Below are positions 4,618 through 42,590 of a DNA stretch of 48,349 nt, in pieces (within the stretch, counting starts at the first letter, position 1; each line of letters begins with the position of its first letter). Location of the stretch: IMG/VR virus record IMGVR_UViG_3300037110_000132; one strand, written 5' to 3'. This DNA is from a virus. Both the position numbers and the translations under genes were made by a program. The notes beneath the pieces were generated by a model. That model made no database searches and was not told where the DNA came from. It worked only from the letters and a program-made list of their open reading frames with translations.

Positions 4618-4686
4618 GCAAGCATAACTCAGTTGGCAGAGTATCGCCGCAAGCGGAAGCCACAGGTTCGAATCCTGTTGTTTGCA
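4618..4686 (+). tRNA. tRNA-like gene with an aberrant, shortened anticodon arm
   Basis: Acceptor gcaagca/tgtttgc, D-arm ACTCAGTTGGCAGAGT and T-arm acagg-ttcgaat-cctgt are all good. Only 19 nt separate the D- and T-arms; they form a ccg-CAAG-cgg mini-hairpin instead of a 7-nt anticodon loop. Confidence 0.4.
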
Positions 4687-7375: not shown

Positions 7376-7615
7376 TTGTCACCACTCAGGAAATGGGCTT
7401 TAAGAATCGTTACCGGTCTTGCCATCTCACTGGTTGCGTTGTTTGAACTAGCAAGGCTCTTCTATCATAGTCGTGTTTGGTTTCCTGATTCTATTGCTCG
7501 AAAAGGACTAAAGTTAAGTGTATATTGGCCCTATAGCTCAGCGGTTAGAGCAAGCGGCTCATCGGGTTTGATGAACGTGTTTATTGAACTCCAGCATATA
7601 ATCGCTGGGTCCTAG
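7376..7615 (+). CDS. Possible small membrane protein (TTG start); doubtful because it overlaps the tRNA at 7526
   Basis: Strong Shine-Dalgarno taaggaga 6 nt upstream of the TTG. Hydrophobic N-terminal helix. The 3' third overlaps the intron-containing tRNA. Confidence 0.25.
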   Translation: MSPLRKWALRIVTGLAISLVALFELARLFYHSRVWFPDSIARKGLKLSVYWPYSSAVRASGSSGLMNVFIELQHIIAGS

Positions 7616-7638
7616 GTTCGAATCCTAGTAGGGCCACC
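7526..7638 (+). tRNA. tRNA-Met/Ile (CAT) interrupted by a 37-nt insertion in the anticodon loop
   Basis: Acceptor ggcccta/tagggcc. D-arm gctc-agcggttag-gagc. Anticodon stem agcgg/tcgct spans 44 nt. Mature loop ctC|ATaa is obtained if the insert sits between nt 34 and 35. Confidence 0.65.
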
Positions 7639-9084: not shown

Positions 9085-9948
9085 ATGAGAAATCTAATGA
9101 GTAAGCCGGAACTGCACTACAACATCGCTCAGCCGGTACTGCACTACAACATCGCTCATAAGGGTGTGGAACTGAAGTTCAGCGAGAAGCCCAATGAGGA
9201 GATTCTCCAACTCCTCAGCAGCAACAGATTCCGCTGGCATCCTACCAGGAAAATCTGGTTCGCCAAGCATAACGAGGCATCTGAATTGATCGCCCGACAA
9301 GTCATCGCCAAGTTCAACGAACCCAAGTTCAACGAACCCAAGTTCAACGAACCCAAGTTCAACGATGGTGATCAGGAATTCAGAAAGTCAGAAGTGGAGG
9401 CATTCCTAGGTTTGAAAGGCCATCCCACCTTCTTGGGAAACCTTAGGGATCGTTCCCTCAATATTCCCTATACCCTTCGAAAGATGCCCACCAAAATCGG
9501 GGCACGGCTAATGGGGATCTACAGGAAGAGCGACGTCCTGGAATTTCGGGAGAAGTGGAACATCCATATCAAATCTCTAAACAGGGAGGGGTCCATCTTC
9601 TTCAACGAGGATTTCTCCCCCTGCGGAATCATCAGGCATTCTGATGCTGCTCCCCGGAAGGAACCGGTCCTGCCAGCCTCCATGCTGCCTTCCACTCCTG
9701 ATCCCTTTATCCCCAAGGCCCTGGAACCCATCATCAGGCTGCTCCAGGAGAAGGATGAAGAGATCACTCATCTGCGGGGTGAACTGCAGAAGAGCCAGCA
9801 CAAATGTCTCCTGGTGGAACAGGATGCCCAGAAGTATCAAGAGTCGAACAAACTGTTCAATGATTTGGTCGCGGAGAATGCTCTGCTGAAGCAGCTCCAT
9901 GTTCAGCTCACCATCAAGCTGGATGCGATTAGGGACTCTCTGAAATAG
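9085..9948 (+). CDS. Hypothetical protein with tandem KFNEP pentapeptide repeats and a C-terminal coiled coil
   Basis: 287-aa ORF. N-terminal duplicated VLHYNIAQP segment. 15-bp unit aagttcaacgaaccc repeated four times. Confidence 0.55.
   Translation: MRNLMSKPELHYNIAQPVLHYNIAHKGVELKFSEKPNEEILQLLSSNRFRWHPTRKIWFAKHNEASELIARQVIAKFNEPKFNEPKFNEPKFNDGDQEFRKSEVEAFLGLKGHPTFLGNLRDRSLNIPYTLRKMPTKIGARLMGIYRKSDVLEFREKWNIHIKSLNREGSIFFNEDFSPCGIIRHSDAAPRKEPVLPASMLPSTPDPFIPKALEPIIRLLQEKDEEITHLRGELQKSQHKCLLVEQDAQKYQESNKLFNDLVAENALLKQLHVQLTIKLDAIRDSLK
9310..9369 (+). repeat. 15-bp tandem repeat x4 (aagttcaacgaaccc) inside the CDS
   Basis: Perfect direct repeats. Confidence 0.9.
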
Positions 9949-13525: not shown

Positions 13526-14407
13526 GTGAAAAAGTTCTTCAGTTACCTCACTCTGATCGTCGGGATGCTGTTCCTGACCTTCAACATCGGCTGCGGTCTG
13601 TTCAACCGACAGTACGTAGAGCCGGGATACGTGGGAGTGCGCGTCTACCTCCATGGCTCCAGCAAGGGTGTCGACCATGAAGTGGTCGGGGCTGGCCGCT
13701 ACTATGTGGGAATGAACGAGAAGCTCTACCTGTTCCCGGTCTTCCTGCAGAACTATAACTACACGCAGTCGGCCAACGAAGGCAGGGCTATGGATGAGTC
13801 GTTCTCGTTCCAGGACAAGCAGGGGATGACCATCAAGTCCGATGTCGGCATCAGCTACGCCTTCGACAAGAACCGGATCGATGATATCTTCACCCAGTTC
13901 CATTCTGGCCCTGACGAGATCACCAATGTGTTCCTCCGTTCTCTGCTGCGTGATGCCTTCAACCGTGCGGCTTCCACTCGTGAGATCCAGGACATCTATG
14001 GTCCCGGTAAGTCGGCCTTCGTCAACGAAGTCCAGGCTGATGTGCAGAAGAGAGCCGCTATCGTCGGCGTCAACGTCAAGAGCGTCCTGCTGATCAATGA
14101 ACTTCGACTCCCCGATCAGATCATCAAGGCCCTGAATGACAAGACCGCTGCGACTCAGAGAGCCATGCAATCTGAGAACGAACTCCGAGTGACCCAGGCT
14201 GAAGCTGCGAAGACTGTCGCCCAGGCTGAAGGATACGCCAAGGCTCTGCTGGTCAAGGGTAATGCTGAGGCCACCTACAACCGTCAGATCTCAGCTTCCA
14301 TCACTCCGGTCCTGGTCGACAAGATGAAGGCCGAGAAATGGGATGGCAAGCTGCCCCAGGTCCAGGGTGGTGGTACTCCGTTCATTAGTCTCGGTGGACT
14401 CAAGTAA
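13526..14407 (+). CDS. SPFH/band-7 (prohibitin/HflK/C-like) family lipoprotein
   Basis: Lipoprotein-type signal (LTFNIGCG). SPFH-like core followed by an Ala/Gln-rich coiled coil (AEAAKTVAQAEGYAKALLVKGNAEATYNRQ). GC-rich gene. Confidence 0.65.
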   Translation: MKKFFSYLTLIVGMLFLTFNIGCGLFNRQYVEPGYVGVRVYLHGSSKGVDHEVVGAGRYYVGMNEKLYLFPVFLQNYNYTQSANEGRAMDESFSFQDKQGMTIKSDVGISYAFDKNRIDDIFTQFHSGPDEITNVFLRSLLRDAFNRAASTREIQDIYGPGKSAFVNEVQADVQKRAAIVGVNVKSVLLINELRLPDQIIKALNDKTAATQRAMQSENELRVTQAEAAKTVAQAEGYAKALLVKGNAEATYNRQISASITPVLVDKMKAEKWDGKLPQVQGGGTPFISLGGLK

Positions 14408-14454
14408 CAATTCAAGTGGGTTAACAAGAGACAATTCAAGTGGGTTAACAAGAG
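14407..14454 (+). repeat. 24-bp perfect tandem direct repeat x2
   Basis: Unit acaattcaagtgggttaacaagag is repeated immediately after the SPFH stop codon. Confidence 0.9.
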
Positions 14455-14743: not shown

Positions 14744-14889
14744 GTATCGAAAATGCTGATCCTGTCGAATTGATTGATGGCCTATGGTATTACTGGGATG
14801 AGGTATGGTGCGATTGTTATGGTCCCTTCGCTACCGAAGAAATCGCACGTGAGGAATTACGCCAGTATTGTGTAGCGGAGGGGCTGTGA
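14740..14889 (+). CDS. Small hypothetical protein (49 aa)
   Basis: ATGA overlap with the upstream stop. Shine-Dalgarno gagggagaag. Below the ORF-track size cut-off. Confidence 0.4.
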   Translation: MSIENADPVELIDGLWYYWDEVWCDCYGPFATEEIAREELRQYCVAEGL

Positions 14890-15290
14890 CTAACAAGGAG
14901 GTCCTCGATCTGATCCTCGCCACTAAATCTAGAGAAGATGATCCCAGCTACGAGAACATGGATGTCTTTGTGGAATTTCTTGACTCCATCCTTGACGGTA
15001 TGCCGCTACCTTCCATTGATCGTCCTGCCATCTATCCCCACGAGTATCAGCCTTGGCTCACTAAGATGGAACAGTTTTTGGATGAGTTCATGGCAGTGGA
15101 CCCTCATCTCAGTTATTGGTTTGCTTGGATGCCTTATCGATCCTTGCTGAAGAGAGAGCGGGGTGGACCCTCCAAATGGTGTGTTTTCGTGGATGCTCAT
15201 GACGCGAAAGTCGAAAGAGAATTTCCAGAGGAACGTTGGCCGAAATTGAAAATTGCCTGGAGCAAAAATGAGAATAGAATTTCTGAATGA
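14886..15290 (+). CDS. Hypothetical protein (GTG start suggested; the ORF track uses TTG at 14868)
   Basis: In-frame GTG preceded by gcggagggg. Confidence 0.45.
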   Translation: MTNKEVLDLILATKSREDDPSYENMDVFVEFLDSILDGMPLPSIDRPAIYPHEYQPWLTKMEQFLDEFMAVDPHLSYWFAWMPYRSLLKRERGGPSKWCVFVDAHDAKVEREFPEERWPKLKIAWSKNENRISE

Positions 15291-15606
15291 GAGATTAATT
15301 GAACAGCAGGGTCTAACAGAGGCTGAGGTCTTAATCCTGGTAGAACTCCATGAGGAACGGGAGAGAATTTTTGATTTGATGACTGACACTGATGATCCTG
15401 ATCTCCTTCAGGAGTTAGCTGCCAAGGTGGAGACTGTGGAGTTTGCCCTCCAGAGGACCTGGAAATTTCCAGAAGATAGTAATTGGCATTGTTGGTGGTA
15501 TCAGGTGCCCAAGTGTTGCTGTCCCAAGCTCGACAACGCGGATAGATGGGGAACTAAGTATCGAATCTTCAATGGTAATTGCCCAGTTCATAGGATGAAA
15601 TCATGA
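15268..15606 (+). CDS. Hypothetical protein
   Basis: ATG at 15268 with Shine-Dalgarno ggagcaaaa. Acidic. CCCP Cys cluster. Confidence 0.5.
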   Translation: MRIEFLNERLIEQQGLTEAEVLILVELHEERERIFDLMTDTDDPDLLQELAAKVETVEFALQRTWKFPEDSNWHCWWYQVPKCCCPKLDNADRWGTKYRIFNGNCPVHRMKS

Positions 15607-16013
15607 TTATTTTCTTGCGTGACAAAAAAGGTAAAACTGTCGCTGAAGTTGAAATCACTAGACAGACTGGTGAGATTACGGGACCAGTGAGATCAGAATC
15701 CTATGATCTTCGAGAGCGAGAGCGTAGTAGGACTGGAGTGATCGCTGATATCGTAAAAGATCTTCATGTATCCATTAATATTCTTGAATATTCCAGGCTG
15801 CTCCTCAGGGTAATTGGCAAAGACCCAGGTGTTCTCTTTAACATCGCAATTCATCAGTTGATTGCGGATTTCTCTGAGTTGGATGAATTGCGAGGGTGGT
15901 ATTGGGAGATGTACTCTATGACCACTAATTCATACAATGAAGTCGTGAAGGAAGTTAGATATCTCTTCAAGATATTGGCCGAGAAATATGAGCTATTCGT
16001 AGTGGAGGACTAA
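15603..16013 (+). CDS. Hypothetical protein
   Basis: 136-aa ORF with ATGA overlap to the upstream gene. Confidence 0.5.
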   Translation: MIIFLRDKKGKTVAEVEITRQTGEITGPVRSESYDLRERERSRTGVIADIVKDLHVSINILEYSRLLLRVIGKDPGVLFNIAIHQLIADFSELDELRGWYWEMYSMTTNSYNEVVKEVRYLFKILAEKYELFVVED

Positions 16014-16014
16014 A

Positions 16015-16308
16015 ATGACGATGATTTTTCTACTGTTTCTCATCGGTTTAACACTCTTTTGTAGTTGGTCTCTTTCGGGATATATTGCAGCACTTCTTGG
16101 CAGGTATTTCCTACCAGAGAATCATCCTATTCGTATTGATAATAGGGAGGAGGCAAAATACGCTACCCTCTGTGGACCAGTTGCCCTCGTTTTGATTGTG
16201 GGTGCAATCATTATTCATAAAACTATTGGGCGCAGACCCCTACAGAGATTAGGGGATTTCTTCTATTCTCATTTTGATCAGCAATCCAAACCTGTTAAAA
16301 ACAAGTAA
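16015..16308 (+). CDS. Small membrane protein
   Basis: Two hydrophobic helices (IFLLFLIGLTLFCSW and LCGPVALVLIVGAIIIH). Confidence 0.5.
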   Translation: MTMIFLLFLIGLTLFCSWSLSGYIAALLGRYFLPENHPIRIDNREEAKYATLCGPVALVLIVGAIIIHKTIGRRPLQRLGDFFYSHFDQQSKPVKNK

Positions 16309-16327
16309 TTCTCACACGGAGAAATTC

Positions 16328-17320
16328 ATGTTGAAGCTAAATAAATCTCTCATCGTGGCAGCGTTATTGCTGATGGTGCCCCTCTTCGCTGGAAAAGGGG
16401 GCGGGGGTGGAAGTTTCAGTTCAGGCTCATCCAGTCGGTCGAGTTCCTTCTCGTCTAGTTCCTCATCGTCCAGGCCGAGCAGCTATTCGAGTCCTTCATC
16501 TTCTTCGAAGTCCAGTGGCTTAAGTTATGGCAGCTTCTCTTCGAAGCCCAGTGCGACTGCCACCGCAAGCAAATCTGGCGGAGGGAGTTTCTCTTCGACC
16601 AGCAAGTCAACTGCTTCGACTCCTTCCCAGCAAGCATGGGTGAGATCTCAGCAGTCCACTCAGGCTGCTGCCCAGTCCAAGGCTTCCTTGGCCCAGTTCA
16701 AGACCGCTTCCGTACCTCCCCCTTCGGCCAAGGTCGCTGCATCCCCAGTGTTCAGCAGGGTCTACACGACATCTGGTGGTACTTCCGCTCCACGTGTTAC
16801 CTACAACACTTATGTGATTCAGCGGCAGGGCTACTACAGCAGCTATCATCCCAATCCTTACGTCTATAATTACCGGCCCAGTTATGGTGCCTGGGATGCG
16901 ATGTTCATGTGGATGATGCTGGACAACATGAACAGCCAGATGTATTACAACCATCGCAATGACGCCGATTACCAGCAGTGGAGAATCGATGCCAACAAAC
17001 AGGCTCAGACTGACGCTGCGGTAGCGGCCAAATTGGCAGATATGGACGCCAAGGTGAAGGCTCTGGAGGCTGCCAAGACCCCAGTTGATCCTGCCTACAT
17101 GCCCCAGGGAGTTGATCCCAGTATCGCCATGGCCCCCGATTTTGCTGCGGCAAATCTGACTCAGGAAGCTCCTGTTTCAGAACCTGCGCCAGAAGCCTCA
17201 GGTGTCAATGGATGGGTAGTCGCAGTGATCATTGCCCTCACCATTGGTATTATCGCCTTGGGCATCTATATTGTCAATCGCCCTCATCGTGGTCCTTATA
17301 AATCCCGTTACGATCTGTAG
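16328..17320 (+). CDS. Secreted or membrane-anchored protein with a Ser-rich low-complexity region
   Basis: ATG with Shine-Dalgarno acggaga. Signal peptide LIVAALLLMVPLFAG, a long poly-Ser/Gly tract, and a C-terminal TM helix WVVAVIIALTIGIIALGIYIV. Confidence 0.55.
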   Translation: MLKLNKSLIVAALLLMVPLFAGKGGGGGSFSSGSSSRSSSFSSSSSSSRPSSYSSPSSSSKSSGLSYGSFSSKPSATATASKSGGGSFSSTSKSTASTPSQQAWVRSQQSTQAAAQSKASLAQFKTASVPPPSAKVAASPVFSRVYTTSGGTSAPRVTYNTYVIQRQGYYSSYHPNPYVYNYRPSYGAWDAMFMWMMLDNMNSQMYYNHRNDADYQQWRIDANKQAQTDAAVAAKLADMDAKVKALEAAKTPVDPAYMPQGVDPSIAMAPDFAAANLTQEAPVSEPAPEASGVNGWVVAVIIALTIGIIALGIYIVNRPHRGPYKSRYDL

Positions 17321-17328
17321 AGGGAATC

Positions 17329-18096
17329 ATGGACTTTCATTTTTTCTCAAAACCGAAGGTAACTGAGTTTGAGTTGGTCACATTGATCTCTGATGGTGAG
17401 AAGTGGGAAATAGAGCGTAAGGATGCTCATCTGCCCAAGGGTCTAAGAATTGGAGCAATTGCCACTATGCCCGAATCGGTCTTCATCGCGGCTCAGGCTT
17501 TCGGCTCTGTAATTCCCAGTAGAACCGGTGATTTTGGGATCAAGAGCATCAGCGCTATTCACGTGCCGTTAGTGCCAGGAATGAAGGTCTATCGAGCCTA
17601 CCTCACCGTCTGTGGTGATAATGACAACTGCAGTTTCATTCAGGCCACTGTTCAAATCAGGGAAGAAACGTCTGATAAAGTGGAGAAGTTGATCGAACTA
17701 GCTTACTTCACGACTGTCTTTACTGACTACCCATCCAGTGAAGAAGATTGGAACAACTACCTTGGAGAAGAAGGAATTGGTTCCATTAACTTCACTGATA
17801 ACGATGGTCATGAATACCATCGGGTCACTGGCAGGGGGGAACATTGCAGATGTCTTACCGCTGAAGAGAAGGGAATCATCACCCCGGCTGGTGATAAGGG
17901 CTGGGCCTCTGAACTCAGTTTCCATGTTTACGAACGAGAGCTTCAAGATGGATCACCGGAATTCTGCACCATCGAAGTGTTCGAAGTCAAAAGCAGCAAT
18001 GTTATGAACGAAGAATCAGGTGGTGTCCGATTCATGGTCGGAATTCCTTTACCCCTTGATATCGTTCTCATCCAAACCAACTCCATCAGGAGCTAA
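17329..18096 (+). CDS. Hypothetical protein
   Basis: 255-aa ORF. Confidence 0.5.
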   Translation: MDFHFFSKPKVTEFELVTLISDGEKWEIERKDAHLPKGLRIGAIATMPESVFIAAQAFGSVIPSRTGDFGIKSISAIHVPLVPGMKVYRAYLTVCGDNDNCSFIQATVQIREETSDKVEKLIELAYFTTVFTDYPSSEEDWNNYLGEEGIGSINFTDNDGHEYHRVTGRGEHCRCLTAEEKGIITPAGDKGWASELSFHVYERELQDGSPEFCTIEVFEVKSSNVMNEESGGVRFMVGIPLPLDIVLIQTNSIRS

Positions 18097-18097
18097 C

Positions 18098-18823
18098 ATG
18101 TCGTTCAAGAAGCTGTTTGCAATGCTCACCGGCCAGGGTCAGGCCGCGATTGATAGCGCCACCATGGCGCTTGAGGCCGCGAATCCTGAGGTCGCCATCA
18201 AGGTCGACAAGCAGGAGATCGAGGACAACCTCCGCACCATCGCTATCTCTCTGGCCCAGGCTGAAGAGAAGCTGAAGGCTGAAGAAGCTGAAGTCGTGGT
18301 GACCCAGGCCAAGATCGACAAGGACCTGAAGGCCGCTGAGATTCTGATTGGCCAGGGTAACGAGGACAAGGCTAATATCCTCATGTCCGAAGTGGAGAAG
18401 CTGAAGAACACCATGGCCCACGAGAAGCGTGAGCGGGATTCTGCCCTGCTGATCGTCAAGAACTTCCACGAAGCCAAGGACAAGCTGCTCAAGACCCTCA
18501 ACGAATATGACGAGAAGTCTAGTGAGGTCGTCAGTGTCCTCCAGGAAGCCAAGTCGGAGAGGGAATCGGCCAAGGCCATTCGTGAATCCGAAGCCCTGTC
18601 CAGTAGTCAGACCAATCTGACCAACGTCAATTCTTCGCTGGCTTCCATGACCGCCATGGCTGCGAAACTCCGCGCCCAGGCTGATGTGGATCGCACCATG
18701 ACCGATCTCAACAAGCCGGTCGCTGAGAAAGATTCCGATATCGCTGCGGCTCTGGCCCAGGTCGAAACCGGAAGTGCAACAAAAGAAACCGCTACGGAAC
18801 GCCTTGCGCGTCTTCGTGGCTAG
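18098..18823 (+). CDS. PspA/IM30-like coiled-coil protein (tentative)
   Basis: Shine-Dalgarno caggagc. N-terminus MSFKKLFAMLTGQ...ALEAANPE resembles the PspA/Vipp1 start. Extended K/E-rich coiled coil. GC-rich. Confidence 0.35.
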   Translation: MSFKKLFAMLTGQGQAAIDSATMALEAANPEVAIKVDKQEIEDNLRTIAISLAQAEEKLKAEEAEVVVTQAKIDKDLKAAEILIGQGNEDKANILMSEVEKLKNTMAHEKRERDSALLIVKNFHEAKDKLLKTLNEYDEKSSEVVSVLQEAKSERESAKAIRESEALSSSQTNLTNVNSSLASMTAMAAKLRAQADVDRTMTDLNKPVAEKDSDIAAALAQVETGSATKETATERLARLRG

Positions 18824-20184: not shown

Positions 20185-20270
20185 AAAAAGGGTTTTCTCT
20201 TATCGGCCTCCTTTCTATCCTTGTCATTCTGGGAATTTTTCTCCCCTTCTCAAAATCGAGGAAATCATGA
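20181..20270 (+). CDS. Tiny ORF encoding a truncated prepilin-like N-terminus (MKKGFSLIGLLSILVILGIF...)
   Basis: 29 aa. ATGA overlaps at both ends. The sequence parallels the N-terminus of the next gene. Confidence 0.3.
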   Translation: MKKGFSLIGLLSILVILGIFLPFSKSRKS

Positions 20271-20545
20271 AGGGTTTTAATCTTATCGAACTGTTGCTAG
20301 TTCTGGCAATTCTAGGAATCATTTCTGCTGTTGCCATTCCGGCTCTCATGACCCAGTATGATCGCAACAACCGGAAACCCGGCTCTGTCATGCTTTGGAC
20401 CTCTGATGAATTGGTCCAGAAATGGGGTGCTCCCGATGCTGTGGTGAACGCTAATGATCTGTCCTTCCTGGAATTCAGGAGTCATGGGGTGGTCATTACC
20501 CTCAAAGATGGAAGGGTTATCAGTATTACCCCAAGGAATTTTTAA
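20267..20545 (+). CDS. Prepilin-type N-terminal cleavage/methylation domain protein (type IV pilin or pseudopilin-like)
   Basis: MKGFNLIELLLVLAILGIISAVAIPAL matches the class III signal and N-methylation motif (G-F-x-L-I-E). Confidence 0.55.
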   Translation: MKGFNLIELLLVLAILGIISAVAIPALMTQYDRNNRKPGSVMLWTSDELVQKWGAPDAVVNANDLSFLEFRSHGVVITLKDGRVISITPRNF

Positions 20546-22287: not shown

Positions 22288-22404
22288 AGGGGTATAGCTC
22301 AGTTGGTCAGAGCGTCTGGCTTATCACTTTCCATGAAGTTGGTGGTTCGTGCAAAGTATTCCACACCCAGAAGGTCGTAAGTTCGAGCCTTACTGCCCCT
22401 ACCA
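22288..22404 (+). tRNA. tRNA, probably Val(TAC), interrupted by a 40-nt insertion in the anticodon loop
   Basis: Acceptor aggggta/tgcccct. D-arm gctc-agttggtca-gagc. Perfect anticodon stem tctgg/ccaga spanning 47 nt. T-arm gtaag-ttcgagc-cttac. CCA encoded. Loop ctT|ACac is obtained if the insert sits between 34 and 35. Confidence 0.6.
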
Positions 22405-22546: not shown

Positions 22547-24469
22547 ATGGCATTAATGGATCGTTATCAGAATCGCCAGATCAGTTCCAAGAAAGAAGAA
22601 TTAACTCTACAGGAATACCTGGATCTCTGCAAAGCCGACCCAACCACCTACGCCAATGTAGCAGAGCGGATGCTAATGGCCATTGGTGAACCCGAAGTAA
22701 TCGATACTCACCTGACTGACAGGAATTCCAGGATCTTCGCTAACAAGATGATCAGGGTCTATCCCGCTTTCAAGGACTTTTATGGCATGGAAGAAGTGAT
22801 TGAGTCTATCGTCGCATATTTCCGACATGCTGCTCAGGGGTTGGAAGAGAAGAAACAGATCCTTTATCTTCTCGGTCCTGTCGGTGGTGGTAAGTCCTCC
22901 CTGGCCGAGGGCCTTAAGTATCTGCTCCAAAAGGTCCCGTTCTTTGCCATTAAGGGTTCTCCCGTCAATGAGTCACCCCTTGGGCTATTTGATGTGGTGA
23001 ACGATGCCAAGGCGTTAGAAGAGGAATATGGCATTCCCAGTCGGTATCTTGGTAGTATTTTGAGTCCTTGGGCGGTCAAGCGTCTGGAAGAGTTTGATGG
23101 TGATATCTCCAAGTTCAAGATCATCAAGCTTTTCCCTTCTACCTTGTCTCAGGTCGCTATCTCCAAGACGGAACCCGGAGATGAAAACAACCAGGATATT
23201 TCTTCACTGGTTGGCAAGGTTGACATCAGGAAGCTGGAAAAGTACAGCCAAAATGATACCGATGCTTATTCTTACTCCGGTGGTCTGTGCCTATCTAATC
23301 AGGGCATCTTGGAATTCGTTGAGATGTTCAAGGCTCCGATTAAAGTACTGCACCCTCTGCTGACTGCTACCCAAGAAGGAAACTACAAGGGAACTGAGGG
23401 CTTTGGTGCTATTCCGTTCAACGGTTTAGTCCTGGCTCACTCAAATGAAGCTGAGTGGCAGACGTTCAGAAATAACAAAAACAACGAAGCCTTCCTGGAC
23501 CGCATCTACATTGTCAAGGTTCCTTATAGCCTTCGTTTCACTGATGAAACTAGAATCTATCAGAAGCTGCTGGATAACTCTAGCTTGAGCGCAGCACCCT
23601 GCGCTCCTGATACCCTCAAGATGCTGGCCCAGTTCTCTGTCCTCTCTAGACTAAAGGTTCCAGAAAATTCCAGCGTCTTCAGTAAGATGAGGATCTATGA
23701 TGGTGAGAACCTCAAGGATATCGATCCCAAGGCAAAGAGCTATCAGGAATACAAGGACTTTGCTGGTGTGGATGAGGGAATGATCGGTCTGTCCACCCGG
23801 TTCGCCTTCAAGATTCTGTCCAAGGTGTTCAACTATGACCACAATGAGATCGCTGCCAATCCAGTCCATCTCATGTACATCCTGGAGACTCAGATCGGAC
23901 AGATGCAATTCCCGACTGCCACTGAGGACATGTATCGCAAGTACATCAAGGAGTACCTCTCACCCAAATACGCGGAATTCATTGGCAAAGAGATCCAGAC
24001 TGCATACCTCGAAAGCTATGGTGAGTATGGACAGAATATCTTCGATCGCTATGTGGTCTATGCTGACTTCTGGATCCAGGATCAGGAATTCAGAGATCCC
24101 AACACTGGCGAGATGCTGGACCGGGCTGCGCTCAACGAGGAACTGGAAAAGATCGAGAAACCAGCTGGTATCTCTAATCCGAAGGACTTCCGTAATGAGG
24201 TAGTCACATTCGCACTCAGAGCGAAAGCCAAGCACGAGGGCAAGAACCCTTTGTGGACCTCTTATGAGAAACTCCGTGCAGTAATCGAGAAGAAGATGTT
24301 CTCTAATACTGAGGAATTGCTCCCTGTCATTTCCTTCAACACCAAGGCAAGCGCGGACGATCAGAAGAAACACAAAGACTTCTTGGACCGGATGATCGCT
24401 AGGGGTTACACTGAGAAGCAAGTCCGTCTGCTGTGTGACTGGTACCTGCGCGTAAGGAAATCTTCATGA
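22547..24469 (+). CDS. prkA: PrkA/YeaG family serine protein kinase (AAA+ N-domain)
   Basis: 640 aa. The N-terminus aligns with E. coli YeaG (TLQEYL...YANAAERLLMAIGEP...YPAFEEFYGMEDAIEQIV...AAQGLEEKKQILYLLGPVGGGKSSLAE). Walker A motif GPVGGGKS. Confidence 0.85.
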   Translation: MALMDRYQNRQISSKKEELTLQEYLDLCKADPTTYANVAERMLMAIGEPEVIDTHLTDRNSRIFANKMIRVYPAFKDFYGMEEVIESIVAYFRHAAQGLEEKKQILYLLGPVGGGKSSLAEGLKYLLQKVPFFAIKGSPVNESPLGLFDVVNDAKALEEEYGIPSRYLGSILSPWAVKRLEEFDGDISKFKIIKLFPSTLSQVAISKTEPGDENNQDISSLVGKVDIRKLEKYSQNDTDAYSYSGGLCLSNQGILEFVEMFKAPIKVLHPLLTATQEGNYKGTEGFGAIPFNGLVLAHSNEAEWQTFRNNKNNEAFLDRIYIVKVPYSLRFTDETRIYQKLLDNSSLSAAPCAPDTLKMLAQFSVLSRLKVPENSSVFSKMRIYDGENLKDIDPKAKSYQEYKDFAGVDEGMIGLSTRFAFKILSKVFNYDHNEIAANPVHLMYILETQIGQMQFPTATEDMYRKYIKEYLSPKYAEFIGKEIQTAYLESYGEYGQNIFDRYVVYADFWIQDQEFRDPNTGEMLDRAALNEELEKIEKPAGISNPKDFRNEVVTFALRAKAKHEGKNPLWTSYEKLRAVIEKKMFSNTEELLPVISFNTKASADDQKKHKDFLDRMIARGYTEKQVRLLCDWYLRVRKSS

Positions 24470-34564: not shown

Positions 34565-34905
34565 CGATGTGCAAATCGAAGATTCATCGTGCGACCGTCA
34601 CTGGAGCGAAGCTGGATTATACCGGAAGCATTACCATCGATACTAATTTGATGGAAGCTGCAGGAATTCTCCCGTTCGAAATGGTACATATCAACAGCAT
34701 GTCGAATGCGGCTCATTGGGAAACCTATGCAATCCCCGGAGGGGATGGGGAGATTACCCTAAATGGCTGTCCCGCCAGACTCTTCATGCCAGGGGATGAA
34801 GTTGTGATCCTTTCGTTGGTACAAGTTACACCCGAAGAAGCCAGAACCTTAGCTGACCGGATGCATAGAACCGTCCAGGTGGACAAACAGAACCATAGGT
34901 GGTGA
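34555..34905 (+). CDS. panD: Aspartate 1-decarboxylase (pyruvoyl-dependent)
   Basis: Aligns with E. coli PanD across its length: KIHRATVT, the Gly-Ser self-cleavage site YTGSITID, AAGILPFE, TYAIPG and NGCPARLFMPGDEVVI. Start is GTG at 34555 or ATG at 34567. Confidence 0.8.
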   Translation: MFITMCKSKIHRATVTGAKLDYTGSITIDTNLMEAAGILPFEMVHINSMSNAAHWETYAIPGGDGEITLNGCPARLFMPGDEVVILSLVQVTPEEARTLADRMHRTVQVDKQNHRW

Positions 34906-36532: not shown

Positions 36533-36826
36533 ATGTTCACGCCCTGGGATAATGACAAAGAGATTCCTTCCCCAGTATTCATCAATAAACTTGGTACAAA
36601 ATGGTGGTTGGATCCCAGTAGTACAGACTATCTTCATAACGAGGATGTCCATGGGACTAGGATCTTGGATGCCAATGTATTCTTCACTGAAACCAGGGAT
36701 GCCTCTAGGGCTCGTGTCATTGTCTACAAGGACCAAGTTGTTCATGAGAGTCAATCCCTAGAAGCGACCGGTCGCTTCATTGACATCATGAAGAGGATGA
36801 AGCGTGATGGGACTCTGGATAAATAA
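36533..36826 (+). CDS. Hypothetical protein
   Basis: 97-aa ORF. Confidence 0.5.
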   Translation: MFTPWDNDKEIPSPVFINKLGTKWWLDPSSTDYLHNEDVHGTRILDANVFFTETRDASRARVIVYKDQVVHESQSLEATGRFIDIMKRMKRDGTLDK

Positions 36827-36843
36827 TCAAGGGAAGAAGATTT

Positions 36844-39043
36844 ATGATAAGTAAAGCTGATAGGCTAGAATGGGGAATAGACCTTATTCCTGAAACATTC
36901 TATCTAATCAAAATCAAAAATTGGTCGCAGAGTGGTGATCCCTGGCCCTGCTTATTTCCCACTCTGGCCCCGTCAGTCCCATACGGTCATCAGCGGTCAT
37001 CAGCTTCGTTCGAATCAGTACCTTCTGGTGCGGGTCTACAATGATCATGAAGCTGCTGCTAACTGGGACAAGGCAGTCATTAAGAAGGCCAGCCATGATT
37101 CGAAGAGCGAAGTGGCTAAGCCCGAGCAGCTTACCACCGGCCAGCTACTGATCATCAAAGGCACCGAAGTATCCTTCTACATTCCACCGACTGGAATCGA
37201 AGTGGTCGCGGATCGTGTTGGCAACTTCGTCCGTGAAGCGGTCACCTTGGAACGGATGGAATTCTGCATCCTGAAGGAAGAGCGTGGTGAGAAACGCTAC
37301 GTTCAGGGTCCTGATGTTGTATTCCCCTCTCCCACGGAAACCTTCGTGGAAATGAATGGGGAAATGAAGTTCAAGCCCATCGAACTCACTCCTATTTCGG
37401 GCCTGTACATCAAGGTTATCGCGGATTACACGGAAGGTGGGACCGAATACAAGAAGGGTGACGAACTCTTCATTACTGGCAACCAGCAAGCCATTTACTA
37501 CCCCCGTCCTGAACACAATATCATCAAATATGGGGATCGGACCGTTCATCATGCGGTTGCGGTCCCCAGGGGTGAGGGCCGGTATGTGCTGAACCGCGAA
37601 ACCGGTGAAGTGGGTCTGATTAAGGGACCCCTGATGCTCCTGCCCGATCCGCGTCGGGAAGTGATCGTGCGTCGGGTGCTGGATGCGAATCAAGTGTCTC
37701 TCATGTATCCGGGGAACCAGCAAGCCCTAGAAGTGAACAAGCTACTCAAGGCTGAACTGGAATCCTCCCCCAAGCAGGAAGCTACCTTCTCTCGTGGACT
37801 GATCGCTTCGGCTGCTTCGGCTATGAACACCTTCGCGGGAGATGCGCTGACTCGTAGCACCAGCTATAATCCTCCTCGCACGATCACCCTGGACACCAAG
37901 TATGACGGAGCCGTGGCGATCAGCCTTTATTCCGGATTCGCTGTGCTGATCGTCAACAAGTCTGGTGACAGAAAGGTCGTCGAAGGTCCCGCCGCGATTC
38001 TGCTGGAATACGACGAGACTCTTATGCCCATGGCTCTGTCCACCGGCAAGCCCAAGACCAACAACACCCTCATTCACACCGTCTACCTACAGGTCAAGAA
38101 CAACCGGATCAGCGACAAGATCATGGGAGTGGAAACCAAGGATCTGGTGCGAGTGGATATCACTCTGGCCTACCGGGTCCATTTCGAAGGCAATGATCCG
38201 CTCAAATGGTTCCAGGTCGACAACTACGTTCACCATCTGGTGGAACATGGCCGGTCCATGCTGCGCAACGCGGTCAAGCAGGTGGGGATCGAGGAATTCT
38301 ACAACAACCCGATCGCCATGGTGCGTGATACCCTGCTGGGTCCCGCCTCTGACAATGAAAGTCGCAGAGGACTCGTGTTCAAGGAAAATGGCATGCGGGT
38401 CTATGATGTCGACGTCCTGATGGTCGAGATCGAAGATTCGAAGATTGCCAGTCTGCTCGAAACCGCCCAGGAGGAGGTCATCGCTACTACCCTGGTGATC
38501 GCTGGCAAGGAACGGGAACTGCAGAAGGTGATGCGGGTTGAGGAAATCAACCGCAACATCGAGAAGGAACAGGCTATCACCGTGGCGACCAGGGTTGACC
38601 TGGAAATCGAGAAGGCCAAGAATCAGCTGAAGAAGAGATTGGAAGAACTCACTGGCAACGCCCTGGTAGAATCCTCCCGCCTCCAAGCTGAAGAAGATCG
38701 ACTGGCTCTGGTGGACAACATTTCCACTGCGGAATTAGCCCGTCGCAAGGCTGAGAAAGATCAGGAGATCGAATTCACTCGTCAGGAGATCGAACAGGAA
38801 CTGAAGCGGCTTCATGGTGAGACTGAGGAAATCGTCCAGCGGTCCACTGCAGTCAGTGAGAAGCTCATTTCCGCGCTCCAGGCTTTCGGGGACAAGGCTC
38901 TGCTGGAGAAGGTGGCTGAAGCGATGGCCCCGCTGGCTATCCTGCGTAATAGTGGAGTGGTGGAAGCTTTCACCGGTCTGCTGAAGGGAACCCCCTACGC
39001 GGATATCCTCCTCAAGAGCACTGTGGCCAAAGTCATCAAATAA
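36844..39043 (+). pseudogene. Major vault protein (MVP)-like gene, split by a frameshift at a 10-bp tandem duplication; the downstream frame 36932-39043 is intact
   Basis: MVP-repeat-like segments (compare RYVLNRETGEVGLIKGPLMLLPD with human [24 protein letters not shown]). Shoulder/SPFH-like block ITLAYRVHFEGNDP (compare LQLAYNWHFEVNDR). Long C-terminal cap-helix-like coiled coil. Deleting one copy of GGTCATCAGC (36985-37004) joins the ATG at 36844 (frame 1) to the 703-aa frame 2. Confidence 0.6.
36985..37004 (+). repeat. 10-bp perfect tandem duplication GGTCATCAGC x2 that causes the frameshift
   Basis: Read directly from the sequence. Confidence 0.95.
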
Positions 39044-41156: not shown

Positions 41157-42590
41157 ATGGAACTGTGTCTGAAGGCCCACATCAAGAAGTCTTTTCGTAG
41201 GAGATCAACCTACGATATACCTTTGCACTTTTGGGTAGCATTAGCGGAAGTTAATTGGATTGGTGGGAGAGCAAGGGGATTGCCTTTAGATAAGTTCCTC
41301 CAGGATATGTCCCAGCAATATTTCCCAGAGATAGTCGGGATCTCCTCTCACCCTCGTGTCATTCAAAGATTCGCCACCGCTGGCTATCATACAATCCTCC
41401 GGATGCCTGGACCAGAAACACTTAAGGCCAATCCTGGTCTGAAGCCTATGCCCTATGGCGATCCCAAGGGATTATTAGCTAATAACGCAGAATTAATGAG
41501 GCGTAAACACGCAGACCCAGAGGATCCAGACAGCTGGCTTATGAGCATCGGCTGGGATACTCTTGGTGAGATGTTTGAGATGGGCGATGACGATGGAGAG
41601 TTGGAATCTTATGTTGAAGGGCTTCTACGGGATTATCTGCCAGAGGAACCAATTATTAATTGTGTAGAGGATCTTTGTAGTGTGATGAAGATTCCTATGC
41701 GTGACCTCATGGCCAAGTTGTCCTGGCGCACTAATATGAAGTGGAACTGGGATGAGGATAACTATTATGATGCTATCGAGCTTGTAATTCCAAATTACTT
41801 AAATCAATTCGACTTTGAGAGGGAATGGATCCTAGGTGGTGGGTTGCACGTTCCTGCTGGATCTACCTATATCTTCCAGGCTGATCTGCACCAGATTGAT
41901 GTCTACAAGCAGCTGTTGAAGACCTCAGGAGATCAGGCTTGGGCCTCTTTGACCCCAGATCAGCAATATGGTGCCGGGGCATTCCGTTATTTACCAAAGT
42001 TACAGGAATATGCTAGGGGTAGCAAGGTAACCATAGCAGACCGCACACGTACTAACAAATTACTAAGAGATTCATTTGGGAAGGATCGACCGGCTGAAAC
42101 CCCTCAGGACTATCCTAGAAGCAAGACTGCATCAACTCCAGTCATTAGAAAGATGAAACCCAAAGAACTCGCTAGCGCTATTCACGTGGCTCATCAATGC
42201 TTCACGCTGGATATGAGTGAAGAGTATATGGCGGAAATCATCCACGACGAGCTTGGAACTAATCTCTCTAGATGTTATGTGGCAACTGATCATGATAAAA
42301 TCATCGGCGGATATTTAATTTCCATGGATGGCTTGGGTCCAGGGAATGAAAAGGAATTAGAGCTAAAAGGACCAGGAGCACAAGGAGTTATCCTATTTCT
42401 ACTGCCTGAATATCGAGGCAGAGGAATTGGACGCGAATTGAGAGAGCTTCCAAGAAAACTCGGTCTTAGCTATATCTATGGTTGTCATTACAGAGAACTT
42501 GGCAATTTGAAGAACTGGACCGATTATGGACGCGAAGTAATTGGTGAGAATGAAATGGTTTATTACACTCTCATGCGGTATAAGAAATGA
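41157..42590 (+). CDS. Protein with the N-terminal leader (MELCLKAHIKKSF) and a C-terminal GNAT N-acetyltransferase-like domain
   Basis: 477 aa. GNAT motif A YRGRGIGRELRE near the C-terminus. Confidence 0.55.
   Translation: MELCLKAHIKKSFRRRSTYDIPLHFWVALAEVNWIGGRARGLPLDKFLQDMSQQYFPEIVGISSHPRVIQRFATAGYHTILRMPGPETLKANPGLKPMPYGDPKGLLANNAELMRRKHADPEDPDSWLMSIGWDTLGEMFEMGDDDGELESYVEGLLRDYLPEEPIINCVEDLCSVMKIPMRDLMAKLSWRTNMKWNWDEDNYYDAIELVIPNYLNQFDFEREWILGGGLHVPAGSTYIFQADLHQIDVYKQLLKTSGDQAWASLTPDQQYGAGAFRYLPKLQEYARGSKVTIADRTRTNKLLRDSFGKDRPAETPQDYPRSKTASTPVIRKMKPKELASAIHVAHQCFTLDMSEEYMAEIIHDELGTNLSRCYVATDHDKIIGGYLISMDGLGPGNEKELELKGPGAQGVILFLLPEYRGRGIGRELRELPRKLGLSYIYGCHYRELGNLKNWTDYGREVIGENEMVYYTLMRYKK

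Follow-up and report, generated by a model that had tools for sequence, protein, structure and literature searches.

The window analyzed here, the whole 48,349-nucleotide stretch of IMG/VR virus record IMGVR_UViG_3300037110_000132, carries a 703-codon open reading frame (ORF) that resembles major vault protein (MVP), and the locus raises the question of what happened to the 5′ end of this gene and whether the part that is left is a remnant or a working gene. A first-pass annotation, made from the sequence alone, recognized the hallmarks of MVP in this frame and noticed that ATG 36844, preceded 7 nt upstream by the ribosome-binding-site (RBS)-like AAGGGAAG, lies in a different frame. Both observations hold, and this ATG, one base out of the MVP frame, is the only nearby start with an RBS. 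The annotation placed the blame for the interruption on a perfect 10-bp tandem duplication between the two frames, which is indeed present; comparison with homologs, however, places the real discontinuity 65 bp upstream of the repeat, at 36905–36923. We conclude that the locus is probably a phage-borne, 5′-truncated copy of a bacterial-type MVP gene.

Sequence profiles and the predicted fold agree that the product of the 703-codon ORF is a true MVP homolog: repeat domains lead into an SPFH-like shoulder, and a cap helix of 128 residues follows. Specifically, the Pfam family PF11978 MVP_shoulder scores 87.5 bits (cut-off 25; E 8.7e-25) over profile positions 3–118 of 118, and Vault_3 matches above its gathering score (E 6.3e-9). 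In a phmmer search of PDB sequences, only MVP chains are significant (rat and human, E 1.5e-16), with query residues 212–632 aligned to MVP 341–776, and a 42-member family profile matches MVP at E 1e-31 and aligns to rat repeats R6–R7; the MVP segments in the phmmer and profile alignments are those of rat. An hhalign comparison of the family with human MVP gives a probability of 99.6% and aligns family positions 211–813 to human 273–865, a span that runs from repeat 6 through the cap ring. Both motif pairings with human MVP drawn in the first-pass annotation are reproduced by profile alignments. The AlphaFold2 (AF2) model of the window protein has an overall predicted local distance difference test score (pLDDT) of 60, with the shoulder and the helix spanning residues 503–630 confidently predicted. 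In Foldseek, MVP chains take the first 12 places among the PDB matches of this model (E 2e-19 to 2e-16), generic SPFH cages come next (E 1e-7 to 1e-4), and a murine R1–R7 fragment that has no shoulder is matched at E 1.8e-5. Additionally, the AF2 model of the full-length homolog P0005 (pLDDT 70) matches MVP at 2.5e-29 and the R1–R7 fragment at 5e-12. Because the Pfam, profile, hhalign and Foldseek searches all point to MVP, the resemblance is not that of a generic SPFH or coiled-coil protein only. Among the features that mark MVP membership, the shoulder, the tandem repeats N-terminal to the shoulder and the long cap helix are present, and the complete N-terminal repeats R1–R2, which make up the waist end, are absent.

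The point at which the gene is broken can be read from its full-length relatives (805–870 amino acids, aa). Homology to these proteins starts abruptly at 36917–36923, which corresponds to their residue ~103. Specifically, tblastn with six homolog N-termini matches only from residue 102–103 (window 36917/36920), a 147-node profile of the family N-terminus matches the six-frame translation only from node 101, and a DNA identity of 70% to the MVP gene of the bacterial locus L004 extends from 36923 (codon 104) to 38996, near the stop. In the same tblastn search, the first ~101 family residues have no match anywhere in the 48-kb contig, so correcting the frame does not bring back MVP repeat 1. A location of the missing N-terminus elsewhere, as a split gene, behind an intron or in a separate ORF, was considered and rejected, since both the tblastn and the six-frame profile searches came back empty. 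The GC content is 32% in 36844–36919 versus 54% in the MVP part, and homologs have no comparable drop at their 5′ ends. The 25-residue leader read from ATG 36844 was also considered as a diverged repeat 1 or 2 and rejected as unsupported, with a GC content of 32% and scores below significance: it has no score against the repeat-1 profile and a marginal one against repeat 2 (p 0.03 by shuffling, 0.10 against other N-termini). The independent Logan assembly of SRR11596275 is 100% identical to the window over 17,583 bp, junction included. Taken together, these comparisons show that the junction at 36916–36923 is a deletion or an illegitimate recombination that joined AT-rich DNA without detectable MVP homology to MVP codon ~103.

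The structural consequence of this junction can be mapped on the model of P0005, the first 210 residues of which are confident (pLDDT 80–92). Repeat 1 of P0005 consists of strands 17–23, 28–33, 44–50 and 53–56, and repeat 2 consists of strands 68–70, 74–79, 106–110, 113–115 and 122–127 (pLDDT ~90) with a loop at 80–105. Because the window copy begins at residue ~103, it is shown, by the predicted structure of P0005, to lack repeat 1, the first two of the five repeat-2 strands and the long loop, and the cut therefore falls in the middle of a domain. The orphaned window residues 1–23 have a pLDDT of 25–34 in the AF2 model. The window copy retains some six repeats together with the SPFH-like shoulder, the cap helix and its natural C-terminus. 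In the eukaryotic particle, the two half-shells meet at a waist built from the N-terminal repeats, and lateral assembly is driven by the shoulder and the cap helix (bioRxiv 10.1101/2023.11.10.566534, after Tanaka 2009).

The truncation is peculiar to the window. The loci compared number 169, namely 80 GTDB genomes, 81 IMG/VR contigs, two huge phages, five bacterial metagenome contigs and a Logan copy; the Logan entry is the window's own copy, and L087 and L088 are identical copies of one contig. A complete N-terminus in one ORF is found in 166 loci, or 165 after merging L087 and L088, which are all the other loci not cut by a contig end; in L125 and L164, the contig end cuts the N-terminus. 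A survey of related genomes for intact 5′ ends, as the first-pass annotation had proposed, thus returns 165 of 165 uncut loci with the N-terminus in place, and the window as the sole truncated copy among 166 loci. In a HMMER search of 1.84 billion representatives, residue 2–3 of the window protein aligns to residue ~104–130 in nearly all of the best 150 matches. One 703-aa protein (P0318, starting MPDLDVGRR) was examined as a second truncated member and rejected as a contig-edge fragment.

The tandem repeat consists of 2.1 perfect copies of CGGTCATCAG with a period of 10. At this place, the window sequence is GRRVVIPGPAYFPLWPRQSHTVISGHQLRSNQYLLVRVYND, compared with GRRVVIPGPAYFALWPRQSHKVISGHQLRSNQYLLVRVYND in homologs of 70% identity; at the protein level, the closest relatives (810–814 aa, 66–71% identity) read ...FGRRVVIPGPAYFALWPRQSHKVISGHQLRSNQYLLVRVYND..., and the window in its 703-aa frame reads ...IGRRVVIPGPAYFPLWPRQSHTVISGHQLRSNQYLLVRVYND.... 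In particular, the window codons ACG GTC ATC AGC GGT CAT CAG CTT (T V I S G H Q L) stand opposite the L086 codons AAA GTT ATC AGC GGA CAC CAA CTC (K V I S G H Q L), and codon alignment at the repeat reveals no base gained or lost relative to L086, L004, L089 and the huge-phage genes L001 and L002. Because the homologs match codon for codon, the repeat reflects synonymous codon choice and not a lesion: judged by this alignment, it is a coincidence of synonymous codons over V-I-S/G-H-Q, without insertion and with no role in the break. The repeat encodes conserved residues, and removal of one copy therefore destroys conserved sequence. Its interpretation as an inactivating mutation, an assembly error or a slippage-prone site thus fails on homologs with the same codon number and the same residues. 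As for its role in separating the two frames, deletion of one copy does fuse both ORFs mechanically, but the fusion is not a repair, as the gene is broken at 36905–36923.

Whether the truncated copy is decaying or functional is less clear-cut. The retained 703 residues keep 107 of 107 invariant family positions and 209 of 211 positions conserved at ≥90%, which equals any intact member, and the divergence from distant members is 51.1% for the window versus 50–52% for its bacterial cousins, with no rate acceleration. A simulated neutral 703-codon ORF acquires a stop after a median of 0.95% divergence, and within 4% divergence in 95% of runs. Since every family-invariant residue is kept, the truncation is either recent or tolerated. 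We lean towards a recent disabling event because the cut lies mid-domain, no in-frame start has an RBS and no other genome has such a form. A recent and largely disabling truncation would leave a remnant that has not yet decayed, or a product made at a low level from GTG 36932 or GTG 36935. If made, this product would keep the cap-helix bundle and the shoulder, through which subunits of MVP and other SPFH cages assemble side by side; since the vault-closing end is lost, it could form open cups at most or co-assemble with full-length MVP.

Several points weigh against a disabled remnant or restrict what can be said of it. A 703-codon ORF with all invariant residues also fits a functional gene, and the status of remnant is not proven. 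The nearest homolog, at just 71% identity, is too distant to date the event or to point to a donor. Additionally, a one-base error or polymorphism in the A5 run (36916–36920) could produce an in-frame 732-aa chimera with a proper RBS, initiation at a start without Shine-Dalgarno is possible, and a full-length MVP could be encoded elsewhere in the phage genome, beyond the contig. In the RBS survey, most window genes have AGGAG or GAGG, and GTG 36932 and GTG 36935 have no Shine-Dalgarno; the gene caller starts at GTG 36935, which gives 702 aa. Readthrough of the upstream frame by stop-codon recoding was considered and rejected: several stops are seen by eye between 36824 and 36907, and the two that were checked at the DNA level (36824–36826 and 36905–36907) are both TAA. 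Promoter and terminator scans and RNA folding at the junction gave nothing notable.

One alternative holds that the truncated form is a selected, functional phage protein made from GTG 36932 or GTG 36935. It would act as a half-vault left open, or it would be a dominant-negative subunit, co-assembling with the MVP of the host and preventing its closure. The preservation of all invariant residues without rate acceleration and the retention of the parts for lateral assembly (shoulder and cap helix) are what such a protein would be expected to show, and a host with its own MVP is plausible because the closest relatives (66–71% identity) are chromosomal genes of uncultured bacteria. The cut, on the other hand, lies inside a domain and not at a boundary, neither GTG start has an RBS, and the sole truncated copy among 166 loci gives no sign that the form persists. 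On balance, we regard this alternative as unlikely.

The two frames differ by exactly +1, and the A5 run is the only place that joins both without loss of homology. A +1 shift at A5 from ATG 36844, or a true A4 in its place, would yield the 732-aa chimera with a 25-residue non-MVP N-terminus fused at MVP residue ~103, and its source could be an error in sequencing, polymorphism within the population, or frameshifting of a programmed or phase-variable kind. Such a product would use the only start with an RBS, the A5 run falls within the 13 nt that separate the frame-0 stop from the point where homology begins, and the intact and fully conserved ORF favors expression. The slip would proceed from AUC AAA AAU to AAA AUU, and a Lys-tRNA slipping from AAA to AAA would read IKIK-IGRRVV. 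Of the features of prfB-type programmed +1 frameshifting, the AAA-to-AAA slip is available; the A site holds AAU, which is neither a slow nor a stop codon, no Shine-Dalgarno-like element lies upstream, no known stimulator is present, and the local RNA fold is unremarkable (z −1.2). A run of five A is too short for efficient transcriptional slippage. Moreover, both assemblies have A5 here, the other family members are all encoded without a frameshift, and even the chimera would be missing repeat 1 and half of repeat 2. We therefore hold this explanation to be distinctly unlikely. By either route, from GTG 36932/36935 or through a +1 shift at A5, the specific proposal that the waist-shorn MVP acts as a dominant negative, which co-assembles with a host vault-like cage and holds it open, is quite improbable.

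By analogy with eukaryotic vaults and their ADP-ribosyltransferase (ART) PARP4, the first-pass annotation suggested a vault-like nanocompartment that packages leader-tagged neighbors and ARTs. The shared leader is real: the N-terminus MKLxLKAxIK is found in at least 10 otherwise unrelated ORFs (at 371, 1384, 2148, 3285, 4792, 6095, 41157, 42587 and 44916 on the + strand and 30805 on the − strand), three of which lie ≤6 kb downstream of the MVP gene. The bodies of these ORFs are mutually unrelated in BLASTP and belong to no Pfam family, except for a C-terminal GNAT domain in 41157–42590. The other half of the analogy does not stand, as no ART or PARP family is found and nothing ties the leader to MVP. 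Specifically, no ART, PARP, TROVE or NACHT family is matched in Pfam among 30 window ORFs, the ten leader-bearing ORFs match nothing in NCBIfam either, and ARTs as neighbors were rejected after searches of Pfam, NCBIfam and PHROGs; Rfam detects only tRNAs in the window and no vault RNA. Thus, the minor components of eukaryotic vaults (PARP4-type ART, TEP1 and vault RNA) have no counterpart found in the window. Across 167 loci, no neighbor of MVP is conserved, the best gene cluster occurring in 12 of 167, and the leader is absent from the MVP neighborhoods of three other phages. One leader ORF (1384–1950) matches a segment of phrog_16619, 'minor head protein' (E 1.6e-5), which hints at capsid targeting; the leader has the look of a common signal for targeting or processing, perhaps one that serves the capsid. 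Given also that the window MVP lacks its closing end, a cargo-packaging nanocompartment is very improbable.

An assembly chimera of a phage contig with a bacterial MVP gene would account for the sharp GC change at the junction and for an MVP GC content at third codon positions (GC3) of 0.66, which resembles the 0.69 of a bacterial homolog; leader ORFs, tRNAs and the promoter-like motif described below are present on both sides, however, and because phage-type genes thus flank both sides, a chimera requires two joints, two assemblers gave the identical sequence and several other window genes have an equally high GC3, which makes this explanation extremely improbable. Finally, the earlier reading of a recent 10-bp tandem duplication (36985–37004) that frameshifted an MVP gene starting at ATG 36844 is refuted as the ancestral event and retains next to no probability: although deletion of one copy joins the ORFs mechanically and perfect 10-bp tandem repeats are rare by chance (0.01 expected per window in Markov-1 simulations), the 22 codons upstream of the repeat are already conserved MVP in the 703-aa frame and not in the ATG frame, the codon count over T-V-I-S-G-H-Q-L is the same in L004, L086, L089, L001 and L002, and the 'repaired' protein would exchange GRRVVIPGPAYFPLWPRQSHTVIS for out-of-frame sequence and still miss repeats 1–2.

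The phage-borne, truncated gene that we favor is a new member of an already known family, since MVP is known in bacteria and phages. The view that MVP is rare outside eukaryotes is not borne out by 1,123 clusters at 50% identity with E ≤ 1e-3 (572 with E ≤ 1e-30), 379 GTDB species and 203 IMG/VR contigs, and many of the related proteins are already annotated 'major vault protein' by JGI. Bacterial homologs have been described from Corallococcus, Plesiocystis, Microscilla, Saprospira and others (Daly et al. 2013, PMC3762200), and our GTDB search finds relatives also in Nannocystis, Thermoflexibacter, Sericytochromatia, Saccharibacteria, Riflebacteria and Vulcanimicrobiota. The bacterial homologs share with the window protein 49–71% identity over its whole retained length, the 107 invariant positions and the order of repeats, shoulder, cap helix and C-terminal tail; unlike it, they are 805–870 aa long, have a conserved N-terminus and are chromosomal, whereas the window copy lies on a phage-like contig. 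The closest relatives are found on bacterial chromosomes beside ftsK and rplJ/rplL, beside ftsH, rpsR, ssb and rpsF, or near NAD-salvage genes, and this chromosomal location fits capture from a host lineage. As a guide to host taxonomy, the FtsH encoded beside one close bacterial homolog proved uninformative, with its best named matches at 58–61% identity. In a single case, L086, a NUDIX/NrtR regulator, a nucleoside deoxyribosyltransferase-like protein, NAD synthase and NAPRTase are encoded at 14888–18610, 6–10 kb from MVP; human MVP binds NAD+ and ADP-ribose (PMC12280208).

Phage MVPs have been reported from Caudoviricetes ctOa11 and ct2Ri15 as proteins of about 811 aa, with no TEP1 or PARP partner reported (Santos et al. 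2023, bioRxiv 10.1101/2023.11.10.566534). Like the window gene, the phage MVPs (ctOa11, ct2Ri15, LR756500, LR756501 and those of IMG/VR) are solitary, bacterial-type genes in phages that are often very large. Unlike the truncated window copy, these phage MVPs are full length, with 809 and 827 aa in the two huge phages, LR756500 and LR756501, and the window protein is just 42–49% identical to them and nearer to the bacterial genes. Eukaryotic MVP (rat and human; PDB 4V60 and 9BW5, among others) is homologous from repeat 6 through the cap ring at about 20% identity; compared with it, the bacterial family is shorter by about one repeat ahead of the R6 equivalent and carries an insert of ~45 low-confidence residues ahead of the last repeat, and the window copy has lost the waist end. 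The SPFH cage proteins (HflK/C, flotillin, stomatin and prohibitin) resemble the window protein in having an SPFH-fold shoulder followed by a long helix, but they have no MVP repeat domains and are membrane-anchored, and MVP chains score 10–12 orders of magnitude better.

The window seems to correspond to one entire JGI contig of 48,349 bp, which looks like part of a large phage and has no close relatives. ARAGORN predicts 17 tRNAs and Rfam lists four further loci, the tRNAs ranging from 149 to 44889; this dense set suggests a very large phage. Among the Rfam loci (22288–22401, 7527–7636 and 4618–4686), the first two are 114 and 110 nt long and may contain introns. Several window ORFs match PHROG families, and HNH and His-Me endonuclease-like genes are present. 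A complete triad of PrkA (AAA_PrkA and PrkA), DUF444 (YeaH) and SpoVR, a bacterial stress- and sporulation-associated module, is located on this phage-like contig at 22547–27224 (E 1e-164 to 1e-171). In a search for close phage relatives, the two genes upstream of MVP gave relatives of just 30–35% identity in IMG/VR, or none; the 97-aa ORF upstream of MVP is an ORFan, and exact 50-mers are absent from the viral and JGI collections. The motif GKTAWAAT (GTTAAAAT or GTTATAAT) has 19 sites versus 5.2 expected, mostly just upstream of genes and tRNAs, including 344, 30830(−), 32047(−), 39734, 41143, 44047 and 44892, and is probably the −10 promoter box of this element. Between 33322 and 39734, no copy is present on the + strand and the only copy (34616–34623) is on the − strand; MVP would therefore sit within a long transcription unit. 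The MVP gene is GC-richer than its surroundings both in L004 (10001–12442, GC3 0.69; overall GC of the locus 0.49) and in the window (36932–39043; mean GC3 of the other genes 0.50), which may point to strong expression with its codon bias, or to horizontal transfer on more than one occasion.

Other observations concern genes and repeats away from MVP. A second SPFH-superfamily gene at 13526–14407 (Band_7, E 1.9e-19) has a lipoprotein-like N-terminus, matches phrog_200 'lipoprotein' (E 2e-64) and, like MVP, has a high GC3 (0.72). By eye, the N-terminus MKGFNLIELLLVLAILGIISAVAIPAL of ORF 20267–20545 resembles a type IV pilin/pseudopilin prepilin signal. Perfect tandem arrays with periods of 12–27 nt lie at 9104–9365, 14401–14454, 47591–47624 and 47972–48004, one of them inside ORF 9085–9948, which starts with a repeated PELHYNIAQ/PVLHYNIAH peptide. 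The parts of the MVP locus are collected in the table below. The first 25 codons of the 66-codon ORF are AT-rich and non-MVP, and the remainder is the MVP gene read out of frame. The inverted repeat downstream of the MVP stop (TAA 39041–39043) has no T-run; it may mark where the acquired segment ends on its 3′ side, or it may form a hairpin that stabilizes RNA.

Features of the MVP locus in the window
Feature	Position	Strand	Remarks
RBS-like AAGGGAAG, then ATG 36844 and 66-codon ORF	36829..37044	+	Ends at TGA 37042–37044
TAA in the MVP frame	36905..36907	+	Shuts the frame 5 codons before the homology start
Junction, with A5 run 36916–36920	36916..36923	+	Homology start, GC jump and frame difference
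MVP-homologous coding region	36920..39043	+	Equals residues ~103 to the end of full-length bacterial/phage MVPs
703-codon ORF from the first GTG	36932..39043	+	703 aa; GTG start without Shine-Dalgarno
Perfect 10-bp tandem repeat, 2.1 copies	36984..37004	+	In-frame coding sequence for T-V-I-S-G-H-Q-L
Last MVP repeat domain	37961..38092	+	Pfam Vault_3, residues 344–387
SPFH-like shoulder domain	38102..38437	+	Pfam MVP_shoulder, residues 391–502; AF2 pLDDT 75–87
Cap helix, residues 503–630, one continuous predicted helix	38438..38821	+	AF2 model; aligns to the MVP cap helix
Inverted repeat, 15-nt arms 93% complementary, 8-nt loop	39070..39107	+	27 nt 3′ of the MVP stop

Taken together, these findings correct a tempting misreading, in which a tandem repeat beside a frame change is blamed for a break that homologs place 65 bp upstream. 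Independently of the window, homologs of the vault shell are widespread in uncultured bacteria and large phages, always as solitary genes. If the truncated form is expressed, the assembly end of a vault protein would have been separated naturally from its closing end, and the product would possibly be an anti-host tool; were the dominant-negative proposal true, the truncated MVP would be a phage counter-measure, and bacterial vaults would matter during infection.

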